DNA of 64,000 bases from Eledone cirrhosa. Its lineage: Eukaryota. Position 1 is the stretch's first letter. Every line of letters begins with the position of its first letter. Made by a program: the position numbers and the translations under genes. The notes beneath the pieces were generated by a model. It searched no databases. It was not told the origin of the DNA and saw only the letters and a list, made by a program, of their open reading frames with translations. Below are positions 1-62,068 of the stretch, one piece after another. The DNA lies in the NCBI GenBank assembly GCA_964016885.1, contig OZ024741.1:17918001-17982000 (forward strand), given 5' to 3'.

Positions 1-1391
1 TTGCGTTTGCCGCATTGGCTCAGCACGTCCTCTATCTCAGCAGCTGAAATCGGCTCCTCGCAGAACTTCGCCTCCCTGTCTGAGAGACGCGGCAGGCCGT
101 CGAGGTATGGACCGAAGTCCACGTCCCCAACCGGCCCCCGCCCCTTCCGAACAATCCGGCAAAGTGCTTTTGAAAAGCCTCGCACATCTGCTTAGGTTCA
201 AGGATCACCCGTCCATCCTGGTCTCGCAAAGACCGGATAGTGGATCTGCTCCCTCTTTTGGCTTCTGCCACTCGGGCCCAGCTAACAGCTTTGGTCCCCT
301 CGTTTCCCAGAGCACGTATTTTGCTTCGGACGATGCAGCCTTCGTGTTTCGCGTCGAAGAACTGGCCCAGGACCGTTCTCGACGCTAGCACTCTGGCCAC
401 GTCGCCGCTTCTAATTGCCTCTTCTACACTATCTACCAACTCCCTTTCCTTCCTATTTCTATTTGAGGCTAACTCCTTACTAAATTCTATAGAGACTACT
501 CTAATCTCTCTTTTGAGAGATCCCCACCACCTGCTGTTGACGATGACACCCGTCAACCGCACCTTAACTAAAGTGCTAATCCGGTTCCTGTAAGCCTTAC
601 TTGCCGGTAAGGACAAGTTGAGCTTCCAGTAACCGGGTCCCTGTCTATGAGTTCTGTCAAGGTTGACCATGCAGGTCACTAATTTGTGGTTTGAATAGCC
701 AACCATGCGCATTTTTGGACAACTTAAAAAGTCCTTATCCTTAATTCTAACTAAGAACCTATCTAGGTACGACCTAGATGATCCGCTACGATTTGCCCAA
801 GTCCAGGTTGGCACCGTCGGAAAATCTAGTCGATATCTATCGGCCAGGTCAAATCGACCGATTAACCCTTTGAGGCTATTACAACCCTCTCTATCGGGGC
901 ATGCCCCTACGTAGTCCCAGCGTGCATCTAGGATACCATTCCAGTCCCCCACTAATAGCAAGGAGCGGGACGTCCCTAGAAAAGTCTCCAGACGATGGAA
1001 GAAGTCCGGCCGCATTGACCCGAAAGGGCCGTAGGCGGCTACCAACCTAAACGCACCGCCTTTACCACTGCCAAGGTCCAGAACCACTAGTCGACCCATC
1101 CGGGTCCAAATGTACCATCTGTGTTGCGAGACCCAGATGTTTTTTCAGCAGAACGACAACTCCACCCCCACCTCCGGGCTGACAGAGAGATGCGTGCATC
1201 TCAAAGTCATCAAAGGTGGGGGCCAGCTGTCGCACGTTGCTGATCCGGGCCTCGCAAATAACCATCACATCTATACGTTGTGACCTGAGGTCATTTAGAA
1301 GCATTGCTTGCTTCCAAGTTGAGCCCAGGCCACGCGCATTTAAACAGCCTACTCTTAGCATAGCCATATTGGTGGTGAAGAGAAAAGGCAC
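1..1391 (-). pseudogene. Tx1 ORF2 apurinic-type endonuclease domain, frameshifted
   Basis: Motifs LNARGL, ICEAR, GDWN, SYLDR and YWKLN. The catalytic (S/T)DH reads SNH. Frameshift near 1090. Confidence 0.92.
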
Positions 1392-3032
1392 TTACCTCTC
1401 TGCGTCCCGGGTATCGAGCTGCACAATTTCCATTAGGGTGGGGGATGGGTTGTTGGGTGGGGTGGTGGTTTGTGGAAGTGTAGGGGCATCAGTGTGTTGT
1501 GTGGTTGGGGAGCTTGGAGTTGTGTGGGTGTTTGGGGAGGGGGTGGGGTAGTTTTTTAGGAGGACGCGGTTAATGGGCCCGACGCAGGGGGGACCCACGT
1601 CCTCTTTAAAATTGTTTTTTAAAGTTTTATAGGTGTCCTGTGGGGCCTTAATCATTTTGAGGTGGGGGAAATCCCCTGCCTGGGTGAAGTTAGGCCCTTG
1701 TGTTTTTATTAGATTGTTGTTGTACACAATGTTTAACAGTTTTTTGTTTCTTGTGTTTATGTATGTGTATGCATGTTTTTGTTTTTGTGTGGTGTTTTTG
1801 TTTGCTGTTGTTGTGAGCTCTTTTGTGTTGGTGTCAGTGTCATGTTTTGGGGAGGGGTTGTTTTCATTTGTGTGTCTGAGGTGTGTTTTCTTTTTTTTCT
1901 TTTGATTGTGTGGAAGTGCTCCTCCTCGTCTGACGACGAAGTAGGGTCATCTTCCGCGTTGGAGGGGAGGGGTATATTTTCGGGTTGTGTTTGCGGTGCG
2001 GGTGTTTTGGAAATTGTTTTTGTTTTTTGAATGGAGGGGATGGGTTGGACATTGTTTTGTTTTGGTTTGAGCTGTGGTGGTTGTTTTTGTAGTGGTAGTT
2101 GTGGTGATTGTGTTGGTTGTGCAGTTGTTGGTGGTGTAGGCAGGATTGGGGTTTTCTTATTAAGTTGGGGACAGACAGCCCTCAGGTGACCTCTGGTTCC
2201 GCAGAGGTAACACGAGGGCCGTCTACCCTCAACGGTAATGTTGATGAAGGATAGATCATCCAGTATGACGCGTTCAGGGATCTGGGCGATCCTTTCGGGC
2301 CTCATTTGAACTACAAGTTCGAGGCTCGTTCCACTGAACGCGTCACCCGATGCCTTTCCCATGGACACCAGCATGTCATCCTCCAGGTCCAGGAAACCTG
2401 TCAAAACCCACCATATGTCCATAATCGGCAGGATGGTGTGGATTTTTATTTTTTGTGTTCTTCTACCCATGTACGTAGGGTAGAAGGTGTATGCGGTGGA
2501 TGTGATTGGTTTGATGGACAGTTTCACTTCTGTGTCCCTGTCCTTCATGAGAATGGATTGACTCCCTTAGAGTCTATCCTTCTGAATGAAGGTGATGTCC
2601 TTCATGACGTCTTTTAAAACCAGCTCTATCTCACTCTGTGATGGTTGAGCTGACTTTTTACTTTTGTTCGAGATTGTCCTAAACATGACCGTGTTTAGGA
2701 GTCTCTGGCTTTTTAGTTCCGGGGGGGGAATGGATTGTGAATGAACCATTTTCTCCGTACACTATATATTTTTTCGCATCTGCCAGTAGCTCCTTCGCTT
2801 TGGTTATATCTACTGGCAGATAGTCGAGGGTTTTCCTTGTCGTCTCGGCGAAGGAGAAATTTTGTTTGTTTGTGTTGTTGTTGTCGTTGGTGGTGTTGTT
2901 GTTATCATTGTTGTTGTTGTCACCGTTATTGGTCTTGTTGTTGTTGTTATTGTTATTGGTGTTGTTTTCGTCCGTCGCATTGTTGTTGTTGTTGCTGTTG
3001 CTGGTGCCGCTGGTTCTTTGGGTTGTTGCCAT
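1392..3032 (-). pseudogene. Tx1 ORF1 (gag-like, CCHC zinc knuckle), disrupted
   Basis: Pieces at 2679-3032, 2567-2749, 1757-2548 and 1392-1727. Knuckle CYLCGTRGHLRAVC. SFAE and TVMFRTIS match SFAG and TVTYRTVS in the ORF1 at 62069-64000. Confidence 0.85.
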
Positions 3033-3126
3033 GGCAACGTCAAGTTGTCGGTTAACAGGTGGAGAGAATTCTTCCTCTGGCTGACCTTTCTTCTTGACCT
3101 CTGCTACTGTGACAGTATATAGATAA

Positions 3127-5032
3127 TTTTCTTTTTATTTGCCACCAGGGCATCAAAAAGTGGGACAAGTACAATGGGGGGAGTTTACATAACAAGGCGT
3201 CCTCAATAAGGAGGGGGCAATAACAAAATATAAAAATAAAATAAAATATAACAAGATAAAATTTATAACAAGATCCTCAATAGAGAGGAGACGCCTTGGG
3301 GGGTCGCACACACCCCCGAAAAAAGTGTGCAACCCTTCTCCTCAGGAGCACAGAGAAGGGGTGCTCCCTTGGTCTTTCATCTTCCTCACCTATAGTCTGA
3401 TGTAGAGTGAAGGCCCATTCACACGGGCCATTCTCGCCACTTTCACCCATCTTTCATAGAAACGGCTGGGGTGCAGCACCTCTCTCTCCATCCTGATCCT
3501 TCTTCGGAAATGATAACGGAAGAAACGGACCAGTTGTTGGCCAGAGAGAAAGGTGCCTGACCTCAGTCCTTTCAGACGCATCCACCATACAACCTCTTTC
3601 GCCATGGCTATTACGCACAGAAACACCGCCTCTGCTTCATCTTTGAAGGGGGGAGGCGGCTTGATCATTACAATAGACTCGGTGGTCAACCGGATCGGTC
3701 CCACCCTTGACAGCAGTTGTTCGACATAGCCCCACAGATCGGCTACGCCCGAGCAGTGTACCAATGCGTGTGCAACGGTTTCCTCGTCGCACACGCATCT
3801 GGGACAGATCTTTTTGGCGGGGTCCCTACCCGGGCGCCCGTGTCTGTAGAGCCTTTCTCGAACGGGTAAAGCCCCTCGGTAGCACTGCCAGGCCAGGGAC
3901 TTCTGGAAGTTGTCCATAGGTCCCGGGCTGAATGTCCTACCGAACAGGCTGGCCAGTTCGTCCTCCTCCATGTCTAGGGCTTCTCCGAGGGCGTCGTCGC
4001 ACCTGCTGCGTACCAGCCCTCTATAGAATGTTGCGGTGGAGTCTCCACTGATAACCGGATCCGCCTGCCAGAGGGCGGTGAGCGCCTGGGCACACTCAGT
4101 GTGCCAGGCGCCCAGTTTTCTCGGTCTTTGCTTGACCCAGGATTGCAGCTCGGTGAGTGAGACGAGTCTGGGAAAGGTTCGTCTCACAAACGAGGCCCAC
4201 ACCGGTTGTCCGGTGAGGAATACGTAGAGGTGCCGTAGCCTTAATGCGTGTTTACGCATCATTAGCCACGGCATCCCCAGCCCTCCTTTCGAAGGGTGTT
4301 GACAGCAGATGGATCTCCTCACCGTAGGAGCCCGCCTCTTCCAAAGGAATTGGAAGAGCGCGCGCTCCATCTTGGTGAGGTTTCCCTTGGGCAGGGCACT
4401 ACGGTCAGGCGGTAGTAGATGACGGACGCTATGTAGGTGTTCGCCACCTCCGCCCGACCTTTCAGGGATAGTTTGCAACTGGCCCACTTCTGGGTCAGTG
4501 CAAACACCCTGTTCGTAACCTCCGCCCAGTTTTTCTCCACCTGGAGGTCCGGTCCGAACCAGACCCCGAGCAACTTCACCGGGCCCTCCGTCCAGCGTCC
4601 GACGACGCCATCGGAGGGCATCGGTCTGCCCCTCCACGTGCCGAGTTGCAAACCGATCGACTTGTCCCGGTTCAGCTTAGCCCCTGTGAACTTTTCGTAC
4701 TCCTCCAGTAAGGTGCCGACCGCCTCGATTTCGGAGGCCGTCGACACCATTACTGTCACGTCATCGGCGTAGGCCGACACCGCTTTCCGCAATCCCGGTT
4801 CCAACGGGATGCCCTGCAACAACTCCAACTTCCGCAGTAGTGGCTCGAGAGTCAACACATACAGAAGGGAGGAGAGAGGGCACCCTTGTCGGATGGACTG
4901 CGCGATTTTGAACGGCTCCGAGAGGTAGCCGTTCACCTTGACCCTAGAGCAGATGCGGCTGCTGTGCATGGCATTGATCCAGCCCCTGAAAACGGGTCCG
5001 AAGCCTGCCGCCGCTAGCACCGCATCCAGGTA
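3127..5032 (-). mobile_element. Tx1 copy B, 5'-truncated (RT C-half, cysteine-rich domain, 3' UTR), with 15-bp target-site duplication
   Basis: QGCPLS and YADD in ORF 4319-5020; CPRC..HALVHC in ORF 3390-4637. ACAGTATATAGATAA occurs at both 3112-3126 and 5033-5047. Confidence 0.93.
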
Positions 5033-5035
5033 ACA

Positions 5036-6019
5036 GTATATAGATAAATAGCTGTATAGCTGTATAGCTGTATAGTTGTATAGCTGTATAGATATATAGC
5101 TGTATAGATATATAGATATATAGCTGTATAGCTGTATAGTTGTTTAGTTGTATAGATATATAGCTGTATAGTTGTATAGTTGTATAGATATATAGCTGTA
5201 TAGATATATAGCTGTATAGATATATAGCTGTATAGTTGGATAGTTGTATAGATATATAGCTGTATAGTTGTATAGCTGTATAGATATATAGCTGTATAGA
5301 TATATAGCTGTATAGTTATATAGTTGTATAGATATATAGCTGTATAGATATATAGATATATAGCTGTATAGCTGTATAGTTGTATAGTTGTATAGATATA
5401 TAGATATATAGCTGTATAGCTGTATAGCTGTATAGTTGAATAGCTGTATAGATATATAGCTGTATAGTTGAATAGCTGTATAGATATATAGCTGTATAGA
5501 TATATAGATATATAGCTGTATAGCTGTATAGCTGTATAGTTGTGTAGTTGTTTAGTTGTATAGCTGTATAGATATATAGCTGTATAGTTGTATAGCTGTA
5601 TAGATATATAGCTGTATAGATATATAGATAAATAGCTGTATAGCTGTATAGCTGTATAGCTGTATAGTTGTATAGCTGTATAGATATATAGCTGTATAGA
5701 TATATAGCTGTATAGTTGAATAGCTGTATAGATATATAGCTGTATAGATATATAGATATATAGCTGTATAGCTGTATAGCTGTATAGTTGTGTAGTTGTT
5801 TAGTTGTATAGCTGTATAGATATATAGCTGTATAGATATATAGCTGTATAGTTGTATAGTTGTATAGTTGTATAGTTGTATAGCTGTATAGCTGTATAGT
5901 TGTATAGCTGTATAGCTGTATAGCTGTATAGTTGTATAGTTGTATAGCTGTATATATATAGAGATATATTGCTGTATAGCTGTATAGCTGTATAGTTGTC
6001 TAGCTGTATAGATATATAT
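5036..6019. repeat. 8-bp compound microsatellite (TATAGCTG/TATAGTTG/TATAGATA)n
   Basis: Directly visible; a degenerate continuation lies at 7074-7158. Confidence 0.97.
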
Positions 6020-7073
6020 GTTTCCTTATTAGCCACAGGGGCACAAAAGAAGGGGACAAATACAAAGGGGGAAGTTTACATACAATAAAAACGTGTAAAA
6101 TACTATCACAAATGAAATTTAAAAGTTAATCGATTTTCCCCAATAGGGGGAGACATTTCATATACAAAAAATGTGCAACCCTCATCTCCAGGAGTACGAA
6201 GAGTTTGTTCCCCTTTCCTCTCTTCCTCTTTTTCCTCAACCTACAGGCTGATATAGAGATAAGGCCCATTCACTCGGGCTATTCTCGCCACTTTCACCCA
6301 TCATTCATAAAACTTGCTGGGGGACAGTACCTCTCTCTCCATCCTGATTCTTCTTCTAAAGTGGTATTTGAAAAAAAGAATCAGTTGTTGGCCGGAGAGA
6401 AAGGTGTCTGACCTCAGCCCTTTTAACCTTGTCCACCATACAACCTCTTTCGCCATAGCTATCACACAAAGGAAAACCGCCTCTCCTTCGTTTTTGAAGG
6501 AGGGTGGCGGTTTGATCATGACAATGGACTCGGTGGTCAACCGGATTGGTCCCATCCGCGACGGTTTCTTCGTCTCGCATGCATCTCGGACAGATCTTTT
6601 TCGAAGGGTCCCTGCCCGGGCGCCCATGTCTAGAGCTTGTCTCGAACTGGTAGAGCTCCTCGGTAGCACTGCCAGGGACTTTTGGAAGTTGTCCATCGGT
6701 CCCGGGCGGAAGGTCCTACCGAACAGACTGGCCAGTTCGTCTTCCTCTACGCCTAGAGTTTCTCCAAGCGCGTCGTTGCACTTGCTACGGATCAACCCTC
6801 TATAGAATGACGAAGTGGAGTGGAGTCTCCACTGATCGCCGGGTCCGCCTGCCAGAGGTCTGTGAGCGCCTGAGCACATTCGATGTGCCAGTCGCCCATT
6901 TTCCTCGGTCTTTGCTTGACCCAGGACTGCAGCTCGGTCAGCGAGACGAGTCGTGGGAAGGCTCGCCTCACGAACGGGGCCCACATCCGTTGTCCGGTGA
7001 GGAATACGTAGAGATGCCGCATCCTGAGCGCGTGTTTGCGCATCGTCAGCCACGGCATCCCCAGTCCTCCCCC
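6020..7073 (-). mobile_element. Tx1 copy C, 3' fragment with frameshifts and an internal deletion
   Basis: GGGLGMPWL...GPMDNFQKSLA...EVVWW, homologous to copy B. The HALVHC segment is deleted near 6557. Confidence 0.9.
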
Positions 7074-7159
7074 AGCTATATAACTATACATCAGTTGTAT
7101 AACTGTATAGCTCTATAGCTATACAGCTATATAGATATATAGCTGTATAGCTATATATC

Positions 7160-7430
7160 TATATAGATGTATAGATACCGTTAATGTATCTTTTCTTGGT
7201 TATGTCAAAATTTATAAAACAAACTTTGTATTTTATCTGATGAAAGCGTACCAAAGTTTTGGTACCCTTGAAATATATATAATAGAATATATATGATCTT
7301 ATAAATATAGTTTCCATTTATTTAATATCATTGAATATTATACTCCAGAAACTTGTTGAGTGCTCTGAATCAGTTATAAACATTTATATTTGTTGAATTA
7401 CCAACAAATTGAATATCCCTTTTGCTTATA
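7160..7430 (+). mobile_element. PLE 3' end (pLTR fragment)
   Basis: Hammerhead at 7227-7291, then the ACTC..TTGAGT hairpin (7342-7361), ending in (TA)n. Confidence 0.6.
7227..7291 (+). ncRNA. Minimal type I hammerhead ribozyme
   Basis: tgtattttat-CTGATGA-aagcgtaccaa(agtt)ttggtaccctt-GAAA-tatata-TA-atagaatata; 10-bp stem I, palindromic stem III. Confidence 0.8.
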
Positions 7431-7440
7431 TATATATATA

Positions 7441-7657
7441 ACCAAAAGTTAAACAATGAATATACTTTTACAATAGAATAGAAGCACTCAACAGTGAGTT
7501 TTCTGGAGTTATTAATATTAATTCAAAATATTAATAAATGTAGACATTCACGTAATCAAAATATATTTTATTATATATATTTCGTATATGCACAGTACCT
7601 CTGAATATATTTTGATTACGTGAATGTCTACATTTATTAATATTTTGAATTAATATT
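7441..7657 (-). mobile_element. PLE 3'-end fragment with inverted arm
   Basis: 7514-7567 is the exact reverse complement of 7604-7657. The long arm matches 16706-16834. (TA)n flanks both sides. Confidence 0.65.
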
Positions 7658-16705: not shown

Positions 16706-16834
16706 GTGAATGTCTTCATTTATTAATATTTTCAATAATATTAATAACTCCAGAAAACTTTATTGTTGAGTGCTTTTAATCTATTGTAAAACTATATTCA
16801 TGAATAATCATTGAACCTTGTGTAACGTTTGGTT
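16706..16834 (+). mobile_element. PLE 3'-terminal fragment
   Basis: Homologous to the reverse complement of 7441-7552; hairpin at 16747-16771; ends in (TA)n. Confidence 0.6.
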
Positions 16835-16919: not shown

Positions 16920-17055
<136 letters not shown>

Positions 17056-17167
17056 TTGAAATAAAATGAAAACGAAATTTCATTTCTCACTCTTAGTACG
17101 GCACTTACTTAAATGTAAGTATGTATGTATACGTATATACATATATGTATACAGACGTACAGTAGCA

Positions 17168-17211
<44 letters not shown>

Positions 17212-17361
17212 CAGGTACACATACATATATGTACGTATCAGTTTAGCGAACGCTTATTATAACGCCGCTTTGTTCGTTTGTAAACAAACTGAACAGCCTG
17301 AATTTATGCCATACGGTGTTAAGGCAACCACGTCACCTTTTTGTTCAACACTGACACAGGA

Positions 17362-17404
17362 ACGATGTACTAGTTTCAAGCTTGTTAGCTATCATCAGCA
17401 CCGT
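17362..17404 (-). ncRNA. Minimal type I hammerhead ribozyme
   Basis: acggtg-CTGATGA-tagc(taacaa)gctt-GAAAC-ta-GTA-catcgt. Confidence 0.8.
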
Positions 17405-17640
17405 ATACCCACCTGCCAGATAGTTGAACGTTCGAAAGTATATACTTTCCTTATGAAAATTAACGGCTGAGCAGCCTAATTTGCATATCGAGTGAGCGAA
17501 GTCGGTCAGGCATACCGAAAACGATAAGCTGAAATAAAATGAAAACGAAATTTCATTTCTCACTCTTAGTACGGCACTTACTTAGATGTAAGTATGTGTG
17601 TATACGTACATACATATATGTATACAGACGTACAGTAGCA

Positions 17641-17716
<76 letters not shown>

Positions 17717-17874
17717 TACATACAGGTACACATACATATATGCACGGATCAGTTTAGCGGACGCTTATTATAACGCCGCTTTGTTAGTTTGTAAACAAAC
17801 TGAACAGCCTGAATTTTTATGCCGTACGGTGTTAAGGCAACCACGTCACCTTTTTGTTCAACACTGACACAGGA

Positions 17875-17917
17875 ACGATGTACTAGTTTCAAGCTTGTTA
17901 GCTATCATCAGCACCGT
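17875..17917 (-). ncRNA. Minimal type I hammerhead ribozyme (second unit)
   Basis: Identical to 17362-17404. Confidence 0.8.
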
Positions 17918-18110
17918 ATACCCATCTGCCAGATAGTTGAACGTTCGAAAGTATATACTTTCCTTATGAAAATTAACGGCTGAGCAGCCTAATTTGCATA
18001 TCGAGTGAGCGAAGTCGGTCAGGCATACCGAAAACGATAAGCTGAAATAAAATGAAAACGAAATTTCATTTCTCACTCTTAGTGCATATATGTATGTGTA
18101 CTTGTATGTA

Positions 18111-18194
<84 letters not shown>

Positions 18195-18244
18195 TGCTAC
18201 TGTACGTCTGTATACATATATGTATGTACGTTTACACACATACT

Positions 18245-18300
<56 letters not shown>

Positions 18301-18443
18301 AATTAAAATACTAGAGTGTGTTGGAGTTAAACACCCTCTTCGTATTATAGAAATGACAGTAAAGGTATAGCTCAATGTAATTAAACAGAGCCGAAGAATT
18401 ATGAAAATAAACCAAAGAAGCCTTCAATACATTAAAAGTCTTC

Positions 18444-18488
18444 ATTAGCCAACAATGTTTCGTCCTATTAAGGACTCATCAGGGCAAT
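18444..18488 (-). ncRNA. Hammerhead ribozyme (inverted arm)
   Basis: Reverse complement of 23794-23838. Confidence 0.85.
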
Positions 18489-19273
18489 TAAAGCTATAAG
18501 AAGCACTATCGGCCAATACAAGCCCAAAACTCAGAAGAATATGGAGTGTACATATAATAAAGTATAGGAAAATTATCGGGTAAAAATTATCAAGTAAAGA
18601 TTGCTAAGGAAGTGAATAACATTTTGAACCATATTACTAATATAGTCCAATGCTAAAACTAAAGCTAAACAAAGGTGGTGATATAGAGCGGGAATTATTG
18701 TACTATATATAATATAATATAATATAATATAATATAATATAATATAATATAATATAAAATAATATAATTGATAATGACAATAATAATAATAATATTAAAA
18801 ATAATATTAAAATGCCCAATATACATATATATATATATATACATATGTACACATATATACATATATATCAATACACATTTCCATCAATACAAGCACAAAC
18901 TAACCCTTATTAAGAGTTTAAATATAAATAAGGATAATAATAATAAGAAGAATAAAAATAAAAATAGAAATGAAAATAAAAATATAATTCATATATTATT
19001 CACAGTATAAAGTGAAGAAGAAATGATTAAAAGTAAACATATAATATATTATAATAAACTATATAATTACATAATTATATAATAGATAATCTCCAGTTAA
19101 TTTGCACAAACAATATAAATGTTACAATAATACTATAATAACAATACTTTAATATTTTAATATAATGGCATATAACTTAACAAATCATATAGAGTTACAG
19201 ACCTTGTTACTGCTCCTGATTGGTTGAGCTTCCTCCTATATACTGGTGTTTTGGCCTTTATATATCTGACAGT

Positions 19274-21936
19274 ATGCTAACAAAGAGTTACCAGCCTTTA
19301 TCTCTGAAGAATATTCCCATCTCCTCTAGAAATACTTATGAAAAGCTCTTAATTGCTAGTGTTAACTCCTTCGTAAAAAGGATAAGATGGCGTGCTTTCC
19401 ACTATGATATTAATAGGAATAGGACTGACCCCAAGCATAGAACTCATTTCAATAACTTTGGCTTCAAAACTTATAAGAGCCCACCACATAATGTTCTATT
19501 AGATAATTTTGAAAATGACTTACTTTCCCTTGTCAAAAATATTAAGTATAGGCCATATAATAGACATGGAAATTATAACTTAAAAATATTGTTAAGGGTT
19601 TTAGAGAGAATAAGTCTATTCTTGTCCCGGCTGATAAGACTAAGAATCTATACTCTATGGATTACAGTGCTTACCGTAATTTTATTTATAAGGAGCTGCA
19701 TAGAAATTATAAAAAGACTACGCAGGATAATTTGAACCGTATCAATAGTGAGGGTCTTAAGATAGTCTCGGACCTTGGCCTCGATAAGTATACCCAGCCA
19801 TATTACCCTAGGGAACCGAGATTTACTCTTAAGGATCATAAGGTAGACTTCATTAGTAATCCCTCTGTTAGACTTATCTGTCCTTCTAAGTCTGATATAG
19901 CCATAGTTAGTAAGAAAATCTTTGACCTTATTATACCAGATGTTAGGGAGAGGGTTAATTTTAACCTATGGGGGAACACAAAGGAGGTTATAGATTGGTT
20001 CTCTGGTATTGATAAACTTGAATCTAGTAGGTTTATCCAGTTCGATATTGATGCCTATTACACATCGATTTCACCCATCCTCCTTAACAAAGCCTTAATG
20101 TTGGCCATGAGAGTGTCCAGCCTTACACGATCACAGGTAGATATTATACTAGCAGCCCGTAGAACTATCATTAATTTCGAGGATACATTTTGGACCCGTA
20201 AAAACACGCCCAACAATTTCGACGTTACAATGGGTTCGAGTGATTCGGCCCAGGTAACTGATCTTGTTGGGCTGTTCCTCCTAAACGAACTATATGTTAC
20301 CTTTCCGCACCTTAAAGGCGGACTTTATCGTGACGATGCTTTGTTTGTGATTAACTCTAGCACCAACAACGTCGAGCATAATAAGAAGAAGCTTTATAAG
20401 TTTTTTAAAAGCTATAACCTTTCGATCACGATAGATAGAAATGATAGAGCGGTCAACTTTTTAGATGTGACTTTGGACTTGGCCACTAATAGTTTTAAAC
20501 CCTTCCATAAGCCTAATGAAATACTCTCTTATGTTAGTCCCAATTCTAACCACCCCAAATCTATGATAAGCTCTGTAATTAATGGTGTATCTAATAGGAT
20601 TTCCACACTCTCTAAGGACGTAGGAACATTTAATGCACATGCAGAGTACTATAATAATGCCCTAGCTAATTCCGGTTACTCTGGTAAAATACATTATAAT
20701 AATAGTAACCTTAGAAAATCTCCACTTACTTATAATAATAATAACATAATATCCCATAATATGGCCATGAATGGGAGTAGAAAGCATAAGAATCGTAGAA
20801 ATCACATAGGTGTATCTGAACCCATCCATAAGTTAAGCCACCGGACTCGTAATAGTGAGTCTAATACTTCTCGGAATCAAGTCGTGCCCTCTGAGCGCTC
20901 ACTCAGTTGTAATGCTTTTGCTAAATCTAATTCTAATAGTGTTGTTTCTACTGATCCTATTATTAGCCCTAATCCTTTTGATATACTTCCAGATAGCAGC
21001 AGATATACTAATGGTAGAAACAAAAAGAGACTTAATGGAGTTTCGGCTGATTCTAATAATGTGGTTTTAACTAGTCCTTGTAGTAACCCAAATCTTAATA
21101 AGGGGATATTAGATAACGGTAGAGTTGGTAAAGATAAAAATAGAAGGAGACTAAATACTTATTTTAACCCGCCATATAATCAGGAAGTATTAACTAACAT
21201 CCCTAGGTCTTTCTTTTCTATCTTAGAGAAAAATTTCCCTCCTACTAATAAATACCATAGTATTTTTAATAAAAATGTAATTAAACTTTCATTCTCTACC
21301 ACCCCTAATATTAGTTCTCATTTAGCTAGCACCAACAAAGGGAAAATTAGGGATGGATACTCCTCTCTACGTACTACTAGTCCGAATAGATCCATAAATA
21401 CCTTACCACCAGAGCAGACCTTATCTCATAGTAACCCTACGTGTGATGCATCACTACTTCAGCCGATCAATAGCACCCGGAAGTGTAACTGTAGAGTGAG
21501 TGCTAACTGCCCTTTAAACGGTAACTGCCTCTCTAAGAACATCGTTTATGCTTGTGTAGTTAAAACAAATTCCTCTAATAGTACATATATAGGCTCTACA
21601 TCTAACACTTTTAAGACTAGGTTTAATTCTCATATCTCTAATGTTAAACATGTTAGGTTTAAGAATTCTACTTTTTTAGCACACCATATCTGGGATCTTA
21701 AGGGGGCTAATATACCATATAGCCTTAATTGGCGAATAGTAGCACGCTCTAATAACCTTTCAACACATACTAAATTTTGTAATCTCTGTATCCTTGAGAC
21801 CCACTCTATAATTTTCTCTAGGGAAACCTTACTTAATAGAAAGTCTGAGATATTCTCTTCTTGCCCCCACGCCATTTCAAATTCTTACTTTTATTATAAA
21901 CCTAAAGGTTCTAGTAGTGTAAATTGTATCCATTAG
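19274..21936 (+). CDS. PLE polyprotein: reverse transcriptase plus C-terminal GIY-YIG endonuclease; one frameshift near 19585
   Basis: SLKNIP, VPADKT, QFDIDAYY, VTMGS, GLYRDD, FLDV, FNPPY, CNC..CPLNGNC, IVY..YIG, RFNSH, HIW, CNLC..E. Confidence 0.9.
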
Positions 21937-23793: not shown

Positions 23794-23838
23794 ATTGCCC
23801 TGATGAGTCCTTAATAGGACGAAACATTGTTGGCTAAT
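23794..23838 (+). ncRNA. Hammerhead ribozyme in PLE 3' pLTR
   Basis: attgcc-CTGATGA-gtcct(taat)aggac-GAAAC-att-GTT-ggctaat; canonical core. Confidence 0.87.
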
Positions 23839-23950
23839 GAAGACTTTTGATGTATTGAAAGCTTCTTTGGTTTATTTTCATAATATATATATATATATAT
23901 ATACATATATATATCGGGTGAACGTGCAGTAACTCCAAGTTACACTCCCT

Positions 23951-42252: not shown

Positions 42253-42291
<39 letters not shown>

Positions 42292-42496
42292 TTAAGGGTA
42301 CTATTTATAGTTATGTATGCAATAAAACCTTTAATGGTAATATATTATATATACACAAACCCTAAATATTGAAAGATAGTCATTAATTACTATCCTATTA
42401 CCAGTAAGATAAATAGCTCAATGTAATAACATCAGTTGTTTTACAGAGCAGTTATATAGAGATTACAATAATCAAAGTTCAGTTTAAGTCATTTAT

Positions 42497-42545
42497 TTGC
42501 TTACAATTGTTTCCTCCAAACCGAGGTTTGGATTCTTCGGAGCAA
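42497..42545 (-). ncRNA. Variant hammerhead (CCGAAGA core)
   Basis: ttgct-CCGAAGA-a-tccaaac(ctcg)gtttgga-g-GAAAC-aatt-GTA-agcaa. Confidence 0.7.
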
Positions 42546-44465: not shown

Positions 44466-45506
44466 TTATATATAGGGTTTAAAGTTTTGGAACGAGTGTC
44501 GGAAGCTGTGTTGGCAAGTTGCGAACACTTCTGATTTTTTATTAAGGAGATTATGTTTAGAGAAGATGATAGTATGGGTCTCTAGTAGACAGAGGTTACA
44601 AAATTTATTAGGTGGTTTGTACGATGTTGCACTATCTACCACTTCCCATTTAAGTGTATATATTTTATTTTTAGTTTTTAGATGGTGTATGTAGCTAGAT
44701 AGTGAAGTGGAGTTGGCTAGACTGTGTTTTTTGAAAGAGTGGAGGTGCGAATTGTATCTAGTTTTGAAGCAGTTAGAAGTGGAGCCTATATAGGTTTTAG
44801 AAGAGCTGTTAGTTGTGACTGTACATGAGTATATGATATCCTTGGTTAAGCATTTTTTATCTAAAGGGCAGGTTCTGCTTGATCTACAGTTACAATTACT
44901 CTGGGTGCTAGTCTGCCGGTTACTATGCTGTGTAGAAGTTTGGATGTTAGCTATAGGGTTATGGTTATGTGGGTTGTGGTACGCAGCGTTAATGTTTACA
45001 CTAGTGTTATTACTATTATTTCCATTGATATTACGGTTATTTGTTATAATGTTACTTTGACTGTTATTTTGAATGTTATTTTGAAGGTTTATCGACCGTT
45101 GTGATTTAGTTTGTTGGAAGTAAGAATTAATTTTTCTTTTATTTGTACTAACTATGTGGTATGCTAAGTTAGGCGTAGTAGAGTATGAGATCTTAATAGT
45201 GTTTTTATTTAAAAGGCCGTGGTACCTGTGGCCGGATGGGAAGTGTTTATCTAGTAGTGAGAAGAAAGCCCTAGGAAGGTTGGTAGAGACGTTTAAATTG
45301 AAAGGAGGGTTGAAAAATGTATTATTTCTTCATCTATTTCTGTTTTTTATGTCTGGTGATTTGTTTCCTTTAATGTCCCTATGGTCATTTCTGTGGTGCG
45401 GGTTACTTTTGTTGTTACAATCCCTATTAGTGTGTGTGCAGTTGCTATTCCTATTATTAAATTTTCCCATGGACATGTTGTGTGAAATGATGTTGTAGCT
45501 ATGTGT
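44466..45506 (-). pseudogene. PLE linker plus GIY-YIG endonuclease (missed by ORF track); one in-frame TGA at 45330-45332
   Basis: Manual translation: NIISHNMSM..FFNPPF..CNCRSSRTCPLDKKC..IIYSC..TYIGSTSNCFKTRYNSH..CNLCLLE..LLNKKSE..CQH; homologous to ORF 19657-21936. Confidence 0.9.
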
Positions 45507-46559
45507 TTTTATATGAGAAATTGGATCTCCGGACCATACCGAAGATTTACTGGAGATTCAGACATGCAATGACCCGGAGCCTACCGGGTGGCATATATAA
45601 TAGTGGGACCATACCAGGTCCTACTGTTATATTACATTTGCATGGAACAGTGACTTGAGAGTCTGACTCCTCTTATAGAACGTTCGGATATGACACCCCT
45701 TAATGGATGGTAACCATCCTAATATATACACCCTTGTACTTCTTAATGGACAACTCTCTAACCTATAAATGGGTAACATACTCTAGAAATTAGTTATAAC
45801 TTCATATGATAGGCACGTATTTGAATCACCATTAATGTAGTTTAGGATAGTAATTTAACTAAGATAACTAGCTAGTTACCTCCCCTTACGCATTAATTCC
45901 CCTTAGTCATTCAGACACTTCCGGAATCTGGACAGCATGATCTATTAATTAAGAACCGACTGGATACGGTTTATAGCTTGATTATATGCTGAACCACCGC
46001 GAATTATACGATAGACAAGTGTTCTCTATATATATTGCGTCTCATGGATTATGTGAGTGGTGGTGTGAGCGAAGACAGTGGTACGGCTTTGCCTACGATA
46101 CAATAAGGTTTATAGTATGTGGAAAGTTTTTGATATTTTGGTGTTTCCCTGCATCCGAGACTGTATATCATACAGATGTATGAGAATAAATGACTTAATA
46201 ATCCAGCCCACATAATAAGATCGATTGCCTGCTTCAACTGCCTGACCCTGCAAATATCATTCTGACGCACTCTTATCATGTATAAATAAGACACGCGTGC
46301 ATGCTACACGTGAGACTGTTTCATACACTGACTACTCTAAACTTTCCTCTTGCTTTATCTTCATAGACTGCCAACGCTTCATGTTTATCTTTATTTTCAT
46401 TCTTGTTTTTATTTTATTTTTATCCTGTAACCTTTATATGTAAATTGCCATGCTATATCATTTGATGAATGTCACCCCACTGTTGATCAATATGCGCATA
46501 AGTTTTACGTGTCTCTTGGGTTGAAAAGGAGGTCAAGTATGTTATAGATCAGTGAATAG

Positions 46560-46608
46560 TTGCTCCGAAGAATCCAAACCTCGGTTTGGAGGAAACAATT
46601 GTAAGCAA
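46560..46608 (+). ncRNA. Variant hammerhead (inverted arm)
   Basis: Reverse complement of 42497-42545. Confidence 0.7.
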
Positions 46609-46753
46609 ATAAATGACTTAAACTGAACTTTGATTATTGTAATCTCTCTCTCTATATATATATATATTCTAATTGTCCAAATACATAAACCAATCGACAA
46701 CAAATAGGAAATCAAATGGGGAGGGTGGGGGGCGTATCCAACATGTTTTCAAA

Positions 46754-48686: not shown

Positions 48687-49408
48687 GATAGGGGGAAGAA
48701 AAAAATGGCTTCACTTGTGCTTTTCTCCCCCTTTAATAATTGTAGGGGTGTAGGTGTGTTGAAAAAATGTTAATAGCAGTGATGAGTTGAGACAGTGAGT
48801 AGGGTTGGGTGGGGAGAAATGTAGCAAGCGCGGTCTGCCCCGATCATTCTCGAAAAATTCCTTTATTCAGGGGAAAAAGCTTTTAGTATTCCTTTGTATC
48901 GAAAATGGTCATAGGCAAACCGCACCTGCCAAGCTTGTAAACAATTATTTTTTTCTGAAGAATTTTTCTACGTCCATCCCAAAATTAGTCCTTTGTTCAA
49001 CACACACATATGTGCGTATATACGTACATACACACACGGGCATATGTAGGAATATATAGGCACACACCATCAATCACACACCCATGTACCTATACATCCA
49101 CATAATACATAAAAACATATAAAGACACATATAAAAACACATATACACATACGTACACACACGAATATGTACTCATACCTCCACATGGGTATATATATAT
49201 ATATACATACATATACATATATATACACACATAAAGATACATAACTAAATATACATATATACACATACACACACACATACACACACACACACACACGTGT
49301 ACACACACACACACACATACACATATGTCCGTATATATACATCCGTTCACACATACATGCATACACACACACACATATATATATATATAGAGGCATACAC
49401 ACACACAT

Positions 49409-49491
<83 letters not shown>

Positions 49492-49535
49492 AACACATAC
49501 ACACATATACATATATATACACATATATATATATT

Positions 49536-49612
<77 letters not shown>

Positions 49613-49614
49613 AC

Positions 49615-50921
49615 CACAAAACACTCAAGTCACATTTCAGAAAGATTCCCCAAAGAATTCATCTTGGAAGGACTTAAATTAGTATTGGAAAACAACCACT
49701 TCCTCTTTGACAAAGAACTTTATCTACAAATAAAAGGAACAGCCATGGGTACCAAAGTGGCCCCTACATATGCAATGCTCGTTATGGGTCACTTAGAGGC
49801 AAAATTATATTCCCAACTACAGATAACATTCAGTCACGACTTCGCCTTCTAAATTAATAAAAACTGGATACGTTACCTAGATGACTGCTTCATCTTCTGG
49901 AACAGAAGCCAAACAGACCTACAAAAATTTTATTCGATCTTAAACAGGCTTCATGAAGCTATACAATTCACTATGGAATGTAACGAAAAGGAACTGCCCT
50001 TTCTAGATATCCTCATCATTAAAGAAGGGGAAAATATCATAACGGACCTATTTTGCAAACCCACTGACACACACCAATACTTAAATTTCCGGTCAGCACA
50101 CCCCTCACATACGAAAAGGAACATTCCCTTCAACATGGCAAGGCGCATCTGCACTATAGCAACACACCCCGTACTACAAGAAAAAAGATTATGTGACCTG
50201 AAAAAATTCCTTAAAAAACAAAAATACCCGATGAAACTCATCAACGCAGCCATCTCCAAGGCTAAGAACATCCCAATAAAAACAGAGAAAACCAAACCCA
50301 CAACATACAAAAGAAAACCCTGCTATCTCTTTTTTCATCACTCACAACCCAGGGAACATCAACATTGTGAAAACTGCTAAGCAGTATCTCCCGATTCTAC
50401 AGCAATCTACCAAAATGAATGCACTCTTAAAAAACACACAGATAATTTATAGCAGATGCCAAGCACCCAACCGTAAAAAACTAATTACCAAGGTAAAATT
50501 TACGACCAACATGGAATCAATGCAAGTGACGAAATGCGGGGACACTAGATGTGGAACCTGTGAACTCATCGAAGAGGGCAAACAGTTGTCCTTCAAAAAC
50601 CATGATAATTTCAAGGTCAATGCAAACATGAACTGCAAAACGAAAAACCTAATATATTGCGGAACATGTCCACAGTGTAAAGAGTATTACATTGGGGAAA
50701 CCGGAACGGGACTACATGATAGAGTCCGGGTACATAAACAACAAATTAAAGACTCCACAGTCAGAAATACCACATGTAGCGCACACTTTGCATCATGCGG
50801 GAAGGGAAAATTCACAATCTTCCCTTTCTTCAAGATATGGTCGGATAACGAACATTTCCGCAGATATAAAGAAGAATTCTTCATTGAAAAATTTAAACCA
50901 CTACTGAACACGAAAAAATGA
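49615..50921 (+). pseudogene. Neptune-like RT plus Cys-rich linker plus GIY-YIG; stop at 49850 and frameshift near 50300
   Basis: GTAMGT..APTYA, RYLDD, LPFLD, KPTD, SAHP, RCGTC, LIYCGTCPQC..YIGETG..RVRVH, PLLN. Confidence 0.9.
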
Positions 50922-51121
50922 ATTAACACTCGGAGGTAAAATTCCATTTCACTACTCCCCCCCCCCCTCTTCTTATGTGTACACATGAATATCTGAGTGA
51001 ACGGTGAGACACACACATATATATGTGCAGGTATGTATGGATGTATGTACGTGTGGGTATATATGTATGTGGGTGTGTGTATGTGTGTGTATATATATGT
51101 ATGGATGTGTGTATGTATGTA

Positions 51122-51170
<49 letters not shown>

Positions 51171-51209
51171 ATGTATATATATGTATATGTATATGTATGT
51201 GTATATTTG

Positions 51210-51265
<56 letters not shown>

Positions 51266-51419
51266 TGTTTATATGTGCGTGTATGTATATGTATGTATCT
51301 ATATGTGTGTGTGTGTGTATGTATGTGCATATATGTATATATGTGTGTACGTATATGTATGTTTCTGTATGTGTATATGTATGTATGTATGTAGATGTAT
51401 ATATATATATGTATATAAT

Positions 51420-51780
51420 TAATTAAATACTTAATACAATAACAGAGATAGTTTAAAGCTAAACTCTGACTGGTAACCATCTCACTCAACAAACATTAGG
51501 TTATATTAAAATATAAACCCAATTTAAGTGTTTGGGGTTCTAACAATATGTATAATGTGGAAAAACCAGTTGTATTATTTTATGAGATATAATTAAAGTT
51601 AAAGTATATCTCTCTTTCCAAACAATTGTTTCATTATAAGTTTTCTACAAGTTTGGGAGAATGTTTCCAGTTTATGTAGAAGCCTAATATATATTCATGT
51701 AAGAATATATTTAGGTGGGCACCTATAAATCATCAGTGGAAACCCATTAAACATTGATATAAGAAAACAATTTCTTACCG
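51420..51780 (-). mobile_element. PLE 3' end nested within the Neptune element span
   Basis: Branched hammerhead followed by the ACCC..TTGAGT hairpin (51484-51538), ending in TA-rich repeat. Confidence 0.6.
51615..51742 (-). ncRNA. Hammerhead ribozyme with branched domain II
   Basis: tttcca-CTGATGA-t-ttatagg-[cctaaatatatt/aatatatattagg hairpin][ttctaca/tgtagaa hairpin]-cttataa-t-GAAAC-aatt-GTT-tggaaa. Confidence 0.75.
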
Positions 51781-52445
51781 CTGTCAAAAATCATGTCCGT
51801 AAAGTTGCTCTCTCTCACCTCGAATGACCGCCAAATTTGAAATTCCAGCAGTTTTTGACTGAGGAAGTATCATAGCGACACGAAGCGGGAAGGGGAGACA
51901 ACCCACGATCCACGAAATGAGGAAAAAAAAATAATATACACGCGGGTTAATTAGTTTTTTTGAAAACATTATCAATCCAACGTGTTTAAGAACTCAATTG
52001 AAAATAAAAAAATAAATATATGCTTGTATAACTTACACACGCATATAGATATTTTCTTAGGCTAAATCAGAAGTTGTACCCGAATAAGAACCGCTTCTCA
52101 TAACCGCAGTAAATGCAGAAAGTTATGCTATAAAGGGCAAATGGGAATATAATTCTCCGGCCGAATTATTAAGAGTAAAATATAAAACACACGCGGGTTA
52201 ATTAGTTATTTCAAAACCAATATTAATTCCTCGTGTAAAGAACTCAATTAATAAAAGAAAATAAATACATATATGCATGTAATTATATACGTAGGCATAA
52301 TGTGTCTTTATGTGTTTGTGTGTACATATATATATATATATATATGTATGTATATGTATGTATGTATATGTATATATATATATATATGTATGTATATGTA
52401 TGTGTATATATGTATTTGTGTATGTATGTTTTGTATGTGTATCTG

Positions 52446-52489
<44 letters not shown>

Positions 52490-53584
52490 AATATATATAT
52501 ATGTGTATATATATGTATATGTGTCTGTATGTGTTTATGTGTATATATATATATGTATGTGTGTGTGTATGCCTCTATATATATATATGTGTGTGTATGT
52601 GTGTGTGTGTGTATGCATGTATGTGTGAACGGATGTATATATACGGACATATGTATATGTGTGTGTGTGTGTGTTTGTGTGTATGTGTGTGTGTATGTGT
52701 ATATATGTATATTTAGTTATGTATCTTTATGTGTGTATATATATGTATATGTATGTATATATATATATATACCCATGTGGAGGTATGAGTACATATTCGT
52801 GTGTGTACGTATGTGTATATGTGTTTTTATATGTGTCTTTATATGTTTTTATGTATGTATATGGATGTATAGGTACATGGGTGTGTGATTGATGGTGTGT
52901 GCCTATATATTCCTACATATGCCAGTGTGTGTATGTACGTATATACGCACATATGTGTGTGTTGAACAAAGGACTAATTTTGGGATGGACGTAGAAAAAT
53001 TCTTCAGAAAAAAATAATTGTTTACAAGCTTGGCAGGTGCGGTTTGCCTATGACCATTTTCGATACAAAGGAATACTAAAAGCTTTTTCCCCTGAATAAA
53101 GGAATTTTTCGAGAATGACTGGGGCAAGCCGCGCTTGCTACATTTCTCCCCACCCAACCCTACTCACTGTCTCAACTCATCACTGCGATTAACATTTTTT
53201 CAACACACCTACACCCCTACACTTATTAAAGGGGGAGAAAAAAAACCCCGCCACACCACAAACATGTTAAATCCCTATATATAGAACAACACACCACATA
53301 CACATCAGTTTGACAAGCGCACCTCAGCGTGAAAGGTCTTTCTAAAAACGAAACAATACCTCTTACGTTAACCAAGAACTCCTAAGACCTAACCAACAAC
53401 CAACGACTTAATTTATAAAATTTTTATTTTTTTTATTTTTTCTAATCCGGAAAAAAATTCTTTTTGGATTTTGTGAAGAAAGTAAATTTGTTGAAAGCAC
53501 AAGTGAAGCCATTTTTTTCTTCCCCCCTGTCTTAATATACCTAACTGTACCAAGGATTACACACATTTTCCAATATATATATAT

Positions 53585-53705
<121 letters not shown>

Positions 53706-53741
53706 TTCACAAGAATCAAAGCTATGTTCAAAGCATTTATT

Positions 53742-53788
53742 CACTTACAATTGTTTCATCCAAACCTAGGCTTGGAGTCTTCGGAGCA
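53742..53788 (-). ncRNA. Variant hammerhead (CCGAAGA core)
   Basis: tgct-CCGAAGA-c-tccaagc(ctag)gtttgga-t-GAAAC-aatt-GTA-agtg. Confidence 0.65.
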
Positions 53789-54647
53789 TTTTTCATGTTT
53801 GTACATGTGGCTCTTTGTGTGGAATATTCAGTTGTAGCAATCTATGATAGGGAGTAATCATCCTAATATAAATACCTTTAGTACATCATGATAGAATAGA
53901 CTGGGTTTATAATTGGAAACTGAATATAAATATATAACCGTCTATATAAGGGACTCAATTGAGATACCTTATAATGTAAGTTAGAACAGTAATTTAGTTA
54001 TGGAAATCAGCTAGTTACGCATTAACCCCCCTTAATTACACACATACTTCCGGATAATAAACCGATGTAAATTCTCGCATCAGAAACAACCTACTCTATA
54101 AAATTGGATTAAAGAACACTGAGCCGCAATAAGCTAAAATAATTTAATTAAATGCATCAAACATCCAATACGGAATCATCGTTAATTATGTGATGGATGT
54201 ATAAACTATATATTACATTTCCTGAATGTGAAAATGGTGGTGGATACGAAAACCATAACTCTCTTTTGCTTCTCCTTGCTATCTCTATTTTTCTGCACAA
54301 ATACTTTCTTATTATATACAAAAAATACCTTACCACTGCAACCTCCATAATACTCTTACTTACCCACGTAAAGTGCTTGTATTACATGTAACACCCTGCC
54401 ACACAATAATCATATATGAATGAGACACACGTAACTAACGCATACAATAACTACTACATCTGACTAACAAACTATCCGCTTGCATTATCTATGTTAACTG
54501 CCGAATGTATTTTAATTTTGTTTTAATTTTGTTTTAATTATGGTTTAATTTTGATATAGATTTTGACTGTACATCAATATATACATATGTATCTGTATGT
54601 CTATTGCGTTGGAAAGGAGGTCAATCACGTGTACAAACATTGAAAAA

Positions 54648-54694: not shown

Positions 54695-54889
54695 AATAAA
54701 TGCTTTGAACATAGCTTTGATTTTTGTGAATTCTATATAACTGCTCTGTAGAACAACTGATGTTATTACATTGATCTATTTATCTTACTGGTAATAAGGT
54801 AGTAATAAATTACTGACCTTCACTGTTTAGGGTTTAAAATATATATAACTATAAAAGTTTTAGTATATACATAACCATAAATAGTATCC

Positions 54890-55525
<636 letters not shown>

Positions 55526-57770: not shown

Positions 57771-58296
57771 ATATTGTTATACTTTGGGGGGGGGGGGTCA
57801 TGTTGCCAATAAGAACTTAAATAGAAAACATGAATGAAATAGCAACATCACAACTTACAATTAAGGACAAAATGAAAACACACACACATAGAACAAACAA
57901 CCAACTAATTAAATAAACAAATAAAAACACACACAGGCACCCGGATGTAACACATGCGCAAACTATGCACACAACACACACAAAAACAAGATGGCGTAGG
58001 ACAGAACAAAGGAGAGGCACAAAACAAAGAAAGGCATCCCCGGTCACTGATGAGGTCACAGAATGTGTGACGAAAGAACTTTGACAATATATGAACAACC
58101 GTCCGGTTGTGGAACCAACCAACCAACCGGAAATTTATAAATTTTTTTAAATTTATAATTTAATTTATAATAAATTGGAGTGAAAGCAACTGGTACGTGT
58201 GTTCCTTATTTGCAACATGACCCTCCCAAAGTATAACAATATCGGTTTCAACACACGTTTTCAGATAAAGAATCTTGCTAAACAAATTCAGAAACG

Positions 58297-62033: not shown

Positions 62034-62068
62034 GTTTAAAATAGAGTGGAAAAGATGGGAAAGACCAC

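Follow-up and report, generated by a model that had tools for sequence, protein, structure and literature searches.

A duplicated hairpin just behind the insertion ends of Hydra-clade Penelope-like elements in Eledone cirrhosa

Penelope-like elements (PLEs) leave fold-backs with a one-sided tail, and to our knowledge the mechanism has been open for about two decades, with only one element studied in vitro. Insertions of this kind are found in the 64,000-nucleotide stretch of Eledone cirrhosa DNA analysed here (contig OZ024741.1, positions 17,918,001 to 17,982,000; "the window", to which coordinates refer unless another locus is named), in a genome of 3.0 Gb that is rich in TA repeats. What sets their two ends? 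A preliminary description of the window had proposed that a hairpin shared by PLEs at large, and located near the 3' end of four dissimilar families, positions the reverse transcriptase (RT) for internal priming on (TA)n. All seven hairpin strings that it cited are present at the coordinates given below. The four dissimilar families had to be reduced, since three of them (A, B and C) form one clade and the fourth (D) has no ORF.

The element families and their hairpins

By their motifs, hammerhead and insertion into (TA)n, families A, B and C are Hydra-clade PLEs, a clade of C-terminal EN+ elements defined in Craig et al. 2021 (PMC8557442). Family B has a single ORF (19274..21936, + strand) coding for an RT and, C-terminally, a GIY-YIG endonuclease (EN). 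The window copy is frameshifted in the 19579-19735 overlap, and the GIY-YIG, at residues 663-693 of a 785-aa frame, scores below the Pfam cut-off; 165 homologues have the same RT plus C-terminal GIY-YIG architecture, and the named close homologues of this ORF are cephalopod proteins only. The RWK motif and the replacement of DKG by DKT by which the clade is recognised were found, with RWR and ADKTKN present, and both B and C have a CxCx5C linker before the EN and a C-terminal CxxC. The divergent RT4(B) of DVTMGS type and KDHK match by eye the Hydra rows of the PMC8557442 supplement. A C-terminal fragment of the family C ORF with the GIY-YIG region (44466..45329, −) is 44% identical to family B, and family A reads through into a Hydra ORF, with tblastn matches in 9 of 11 loci and E values down to 1e-76.

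The hammerhead and (TA)n insertion are also found in the sequence. Cores were located by the core scan at 7237..7273 (+) in family A copy A1 and, for family B, at 18458..18482 (−) in the long arm and 23800..23824 (+) in the sense copy, while family C contains a hammerhead-like motif with a variant core (42510..42540, −). This last family has a variant core and yet is young, with copies 99% identical. Two other PLE clades were discarded: Nematis, whose CX2-5CxxC linker and CCHH EN were not found here and whose rows differ, and Naiad, which has an N-terminal EN, the EN being C-terminal in these elements. A scan of viral contigs found no relative. The window also holds L1/Tx1-like non-LTR elements (APE, RT, zf-RVT) at 32-7083 and 58614-63923, with a 1204-aa open frame at 58614-62228 (−).

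Elements of families A, B and C carry, between the hammerhead and the start codon, two copies of one bulged hairpin (hp1 and hp2), with a 4-bp GCUC/GAGC-type stem, a 2-nt 3' bulge and a covarying inner stem. Hp1 is at 7342..7361 (+) in family A, at 18370..18391 (−) in B and at 42416..42449 (−) in C. Further A-type versions are found in the long arm of a fold-back (7486..7509, −) and in a 5'-truncated copy between TA tracts (16747..16771, +), and a decayed version in the long arm of a C-related insertion (54743..54776, +). Hp2 of family B lies at 19212..19229 (+), and the distance from hp2 to the AUG (19274 in this copy) is conserved at about 15-42 nt. The hairpin, placed near the 3' end in the preliminary description, is not 3'-terminal and is the first of two at the junction of the pLTR and the 5'-UTR. 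By eye, each tail in this genome has a further simple hairpin between hp1 and hp2, not conserved in sequence (18300-18345(−), 7385-7410(+), 42385-42415(−) and 51435-51465(−)).

Conservation and covariation in distant relatives

We searched for the hairpin in metagenome relatives (78 loci, 34-42% protein identity in the best segment), using sequence only and with no pairing required. They contained 85 hammerhead candidates in 65 loci, of which 12 were too near a contig end and were dropped; the rest made 36 clusters. Hp1 was found in 29 of the 36, 42-63 nt past the core; of 1290 control windows, 8 scored. As many as 23 of the 36 also have hp2, 43-83 nt beyond hp1, two or three of these calls looking wrong. 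Among the seven clusters with no hp1 call, three or four resemble false hammerheads, and L198, L200 and L234 have variant or mis-parsed hairpins. It is this position behind the hammerhead that decides that the hairpin is beyond chance; a loose descriptor matched 15 sites when run over 264 kb and 4-13 when run over each of 20 shuffles, a modest excess over a high background.

The covariation of the inner stems, already described for the window, was borne out across families. The first inner pair of hp1 is paired in 29 of 29 (17 U-A and 12 C-G; permutation mean 22, with 0 of 10000 permutations as high), the second in 27 and the third in 22, and the 2-nt bulge register gave the best fit for this pairing. 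In a quick RT tree (28 rows, without named references, and with the window ORF as a long branch) the first pair is most simply explained by five double-sided switches, at least three of them forced by strong branches, with no mismatched state. The outer stem is paired in 99% of alignment cells, with one compensated pair; this alignment count covers the outer stem only, the inner stem having been counted by script. The bulge, on the other hand, is not the fixed UU that had been claimed: it is UU in 23, UC in 4 and UA in 2 of 29, i.e. U followed by U, C or A. Directly after the hairpin, ACU was found in 45 of 52 hairpins of the relatives.

Hp2 retains the outer stem, the bulge and the first inner pair (21 of 23). 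Past that pair its covariation stays at the level of shuffles (10 of 23 at pair 2), its pairing probability exceeds 0.5 in just 13 of 23, and the 261-nt region as a whole folds like shuffles (z −0.03), all of which count against priming positioned by hairpins. Cross-pairing of hp1 with hp2 as a switch was considered and rejected, being favoured in 2 of 23 only. No match to Rfam 15 at gathering score was found in eight loci, and the scan of the window gave repeat-driven matches only, among the 150 of 291 matches listed.

Two classes of ends and the one-sided tail

To map where insertions end we used the 30 best of 40 scored copies per family, from 1172, 702 and 105 candidates, the window's own arms included, with queries that stopped 22-34 nt short of hp1. 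Of the 87 terminating genomic copies of families A, B and C, 85 have their end in the roughly 15 nt that precede hp1 or hp2; the clustering of 3' junctions near the hairpin that the preliminary description had led us to look for is thus borne out. Family B ends (n = 30) fall at −5 to −9 from hp1 in 15 copies and at −4 to −13 from hp2 in 13 (taking hp2 as hp1 + 100), with 2 read-throughs. For family C (n = 30) the counts are 21 at −3 or −8 from hp1, 8 at −6 from hp2 and 1 read-through, and for family A (n = 30) 15 at hp1, 13 at hp2, 1 other and 1 unplaced, with offsets of −15 to +1 that are blurred by AT-rich overlap. Among the relatives, an informative row (a near-identical read-through reference plus flanking DNA) was available in 12 of 49; all 12 end before a hairpin, 7 at 0-12 nt from hp1 and 5 at 2-4 nt from hp2, two of the latter probably being one insertion. 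In the 37 rows left over, the alignment reads through, runs off a contig or matches across families.

Within the window, all four short arms break off ahead of the hairpin, where TA or TC/GA repeats take over, much as first described. The family A short arm (7600..7657, +), opposite the hairpin at 7486..7509, ends 4 nt before hp1, the family B short end (23860..23884, +) 6 nt before it, both joined to (TA)n, and the inverted family C arm (45503..46647, +) 8 nt before it, followed by five TC units and then (TA)n. The fourth, a C-related arm joined to a TC/GA repeat (53702..53809, −), does not keep strictly to the 4-8 nt that had been reported with a stop at ~53705: it stops at about 53702, −8 to −12 nt depending on one mismatch. 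The long ends go further. In family A the copy with hp1 at 7342..7361 ends at 7427, 0-7 nt before hp2 in read-through copies elsewhere, and the fold-back arm with hp1 at 7486..7509 ends near 7440. The outer end of the inverted long arm of family B (18298..19203, −) is 18298, 6 nt before hp2 in read-through copies, and the tail of family C (42287..42415, −) has its long end at 42287, 6 nt before hp2 in tandem copies L289 and L086; the long end of the C-related insertion is near 54898. Actually, hp2 lies just beyond the long end in read-through copies of all three families (for B, window 19212-19229, L037 and L038; for C, L289 and L086; for A, most of L309-L317). Since the long arm also ends internally, right before hp2, both ends are defined by a hairpin. 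One of these loci, L289 (G000:C1:172894000-172903999), is a tandem array of 4697-bp family C units.

Fold-backs combine one long and one short end in 48 of 52 raw cases and in 45 of 48 after four doubtful rows were removed. The exceptions, three short-short pairs, all of family A, count against priming set by the hairpins. As one arm ends at each hairpin in these 45 of 48, the one-sided tail is the spacer between hp1 and hp2, 94 nt in A, 100 nt in B, 167 nt in C and 43-83 nt in the relatives. For Hydra-clade elements PMC8557442 gives a tail of 30-40 bp and attributes it to EN resolution; the tails measured here are longer, at 43-167 nt, and have the same length as the interval between the two conserved hairpins. 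In some copies that seem to be direct (L008, L057 and L048), 6-12 nt left over from the other end are concealed in the 5' junction.

The sequence around the ends has further features. The 12 nt upstream of hp1 include TAT or ATA in 26 of 29 families (control window, 8 of 29), and those upstream of hp2 do so in 14 of 23 (control window, 8 of 23). Family C short ends have (TC)n of 3-20 units in 14 of 21, the template having two TC units; hairpin-containing copies of the same family keep two units in 12 of 12 (0 of 12 expanded), and three or more TC units were found at 31 of 545 nearby TA-tract edges. The TC run is not a duplicated target, since it is absent from 8 of 8 far flanks of these short ends. 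Stutter of the RT at initiation would be the simplest reading of this pattern, and the run may also come from slippage or expansion after insertion, beside the TA tract. Internal priming on (TA)n, as first proposed, is therefore supported by genomic proxies (the clustering of ends, the AU-rich patch and the family C (TC)n), although it was incomplete in that hp2 had been missed. In two relatives (L181:2609 and L207) the (ATTT)n or (TATG)n that follows the ends matches the last template letters, which could be stutter or target choice. At a family B 5' junction (L004:1440-1489) a GA run adjoins element sequence starting with GAG, which hints that slippage or microhomology was involved at the second junction, or that the run expanded later.

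Of 26 insertions of families B and C, 5 have a long arm that halts 0-10 nt from the 3' foot of hp1, as do 0 of 20 of family A; the former stops lend slight support to hp1 being occupied on the same RNA. Most long arms extend far beyond hp1, so copying one RNA twice would need strand displacement or a second RNA, a point against the model. The sense body of family B, which starts at 19204, 8 nt before hp2 (the unit minus its tail), and the exact monomers of family D fit a circular or a tandem template alike.

Family D is a non-autonomous 1002-bp tandem unit (51424..52290, −, in the window, where the copy ends at 51424), with no tblastn ORF match in L128 and L130, no canonical hammerhead core in the core scan and no intact hp1. 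It had been assigned the same fold, at 51484-51538, and this assignment fails, because almost every copy has a C.A mismatch in the cited basal stem, the predicted fold is different and 0 of 30 copies end before it. Instead, 25 of the 30 stop directly ahead of a string that resembles a degenerate hairpin, and 5 are read-throughs. These ends are sharp although only a degenerate hairpin lies behind them, which again counts against hairpin priming. Inverted arms of at least 25 nt were found in 0 of 30 D copies, against about 11 of 30 in B (counted from maps), and exact monomers in 3 of 30. The pattern (a broken hp1, with no short ends or inverted arms) fits a natural loss of hp1, in one family. 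At L125:1120-2554 one family A fold-back pair is present twice, on either side of a D monomer, as if a large stretch had been duplicated when the monomer inserted.

The twin-hairpin signal is specific to Hydra-clade elements and not common to all PLEs, as had been supposed. Neptune-type (window) and DKG-type read-through copies of the same genome have no Hydra hairpin and yet have two ends about 36-40 nt apart, and no Hydra hairpin was found in other hammerhead-bearing families over 664 kb. The Neptune-type fold-back (window 48690-53575 and L320) has a 36-nt tail and a weak repeated motif (TATWCC, then TGTAC-AAG) after the short end and the long end, the latter seen in one read-through copy; it is possibly a second kind of twin signal. 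The DKG-type family (L323-L331, and near 308634/308780 of the 664-kb region), with ends about 40 nt apart, has a faint CC..TTAC after both. Furthermore, there are hammerhead tandem arrays of 466-, 469- and 311-bp units, several head-to-head, retrozyme-like and without the hairpin (window 17051-18228 and 55017-55519; 664-kb region near 240000, 297000 and 543000), and an extra hammerhead core at 58047-58075 with no Hydra hairpin downstream.

Probable hairpin-positioned priming and its alternatives

Any explanation has to start from what is observed, namely two conserved hairpins, two classes of ends and the pairing of one long with one short arm. Comparison of sequences points to a reading that we regard as probable, in which each hairpin would dock one RT for internal priming, one hairpin for each nicked strand of the target. 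A stricter version, with one dimer acting on one RNA, could within this reading just as well be wrong as right. The template would be an uncleaved tandem or circular RNA across the unit junction, on which hp1 and hp2 would be bound by two RT molecules, probably a dimer. The EN would nick both strands of a (TA)n tract, and each 3' end would anneal to the AU-rich patch 2-9 nt 5' of a hairpin, might stutter there and would then be extended. Head-to-head joining of the two cDNAs would give a fold-back with one arm longer by exactly the hp1-hp2 spacer, i.e. the tail; if one cDNA were negligible the copy would appear direct, ending at either site. Start sites set in this way would explain the one-sided tail of Hydra-clade PLEs.

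Parts of this scheme have parallels in other retroelements. In stringent LINEs and SINEs (of the eel UnaL2 type) a single 3' stem-loop selects the template of the RT; synthesis starts at a terminal site 3' of this stem-loop, which is itself copied. The I factor and similar LINEs show 3' repeat slippage, with stuttered repeats where synthesis starts. A small template-selecting RNA hairpin and stuttered repeats at the start of synthesis would be common to both. In the Hydra-clade elements, on the other hand, the start sites would be internal, with a hairpin on the 3' side of each, and neither hairpin would be copied by the RT that it positions. In L1 twin priming both nicked target strands prime on the element RNA and an inversion results, as an occasional event with an arbitrary second site; in the Hydra-clade elements both sites would be fixed by cis elements.

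Within PLEs, one-sided tails and fold-backs have been described (PMC8557442, PMC3846280), as have hammerheads in pLTRs (PMC4209133). Published Hydra-clade elements share the protein motifs, the hammerhead, (TA)n targeting and fold-backs with a one-sided tail, and one published consensus in the PMC8557442 supplement ends with hp1 plus the tail; the word "hairpin" has no occurrence in the main text of that paper. Another comparison is PAc, a Poseidon element of Anolis (Frangieh et al. 2024, PMC11167929). In vitro both target strands are nicked and extended by it, its tail is bounded by two internal sites at which the RT starts, a dimer is predicted and its targets are AT-rich (PMC11167929), all as in the reading preferred here. 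Inspection by eye of the RNA letters in Fig. S1 of that paper did not reveal the Hydra hairpin, and the PAc start site is reported as non-homologous to the target (PMC11167929), which counts against hairpin priming in Hydra-clade elements. Non-LTR retrozymes (PMC7229834; bioRxiv 10.64898/2026.07.22.740005), which family D resembles, are hammerhead tandem units with circles proposed to be copied by a PLE RT; the portions of these two sources compared here give no RT-recognition signal. In the literature searched, which covers older PLE work thinly, we met with no account of a hairpin, conserved or duplicated, that lies behind the ends of PLEs. Within it a conserved, duplicated candidate positioning signal would be new; two internal start sites were already known, from one Poseidon element.

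Other explanations of the ends were weighed against this one. The GIY-YIG EN might read the hairpins in DNA and cut the cDNA or the donor copy beside them at resolution, the RT starting further downstream. This agrees with the EN-mediated resolution to which Craig et al. ascribe the tail (PMC8557442) and with the need of the Drosophila Penelope EN for the tail in order to cleave plasmid DNA (as cited in PMC11167929); the stems fold with similar energy on the opposite strand, and the same two end classes are predicted. We consider it unlikely, because a variable (TC)n at terminal copies only, and not at the far flank, is easier to obtain from the start of a polymerase than from a cut, because of the AU patch upstream of the hairpins and because PAc start sites were mapped directly to both tail borders (PMC11167929); the excess of G-U over A-C on the sense strand (10 against 4) is a weak argument in the same direction. 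Alternatively, the hairpins could make RNA 3' ends, by termination or cleavage just upstream, followed by ordinary end-primed TPRT on two RNA species. Strand displacement would then not be needed, and PAc RNA-seq read ends do coincide with the start sites (PMC11167929). Two independent RNAs should however give about half of the fold-backs equal ends, against 3 of 48 seen, and the size of the PAc product was unchanged by 3' extensions of the template (PMC11167929), which makes this route quite improbable.

It is more doubtful still that the hairpins serve RNP packaging or translation control and that the ends cluster merely through pairing of AU-rich patches with (TA)n primers. The patch exists and the conserved distance from hp2 to the AUG would suit such a role, but many better TA matches in 3' UTRs and tails are unused (e.g. 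the C tail and the B 3' UTR), and in families whose spacing differs threefold the ends still keep to within about 10 nt of both hairpins. Chance resemblance of short strings, finally, has in its favour the high background of the loose descriptor in this genome, and might account for family D. As regards A, B, C and the relatives, it is refuted by the frequency behind hammerheads relative to control windows, the covariation, the duplication and the mapping of ends, and overall we give it practically no credence.

Hairpin-positioned internal priming can be extended, tentatively and with more doubt than confidence on our part, to a programmed twin priming across PLEs. An RT dimer would act on two matched hairpins of a circular or tandem template, each protomer priming from one of the nicked strands after telomerase-like stutter on a 3-5-nt internal template, and one geometry would produce the fold-back with its tail and also some of the microsatellite beside it; other clades would have different duplicated signals.

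A short, deeply conserved and duplicated RNA signal makes the origin of the PLE tail directly testable, as the model predicts which end each hairpin mutation removes. With the twin hairpins, annotators can also place the boundaries of Hydra elements exactly and test which non-autonomous repeats these elements mobilise. Furthermore, the PLE RT is sister to telomerase, so an RNA element that would set an internal template and allow repeat stutter bears on the origin of telomerase RNA function.
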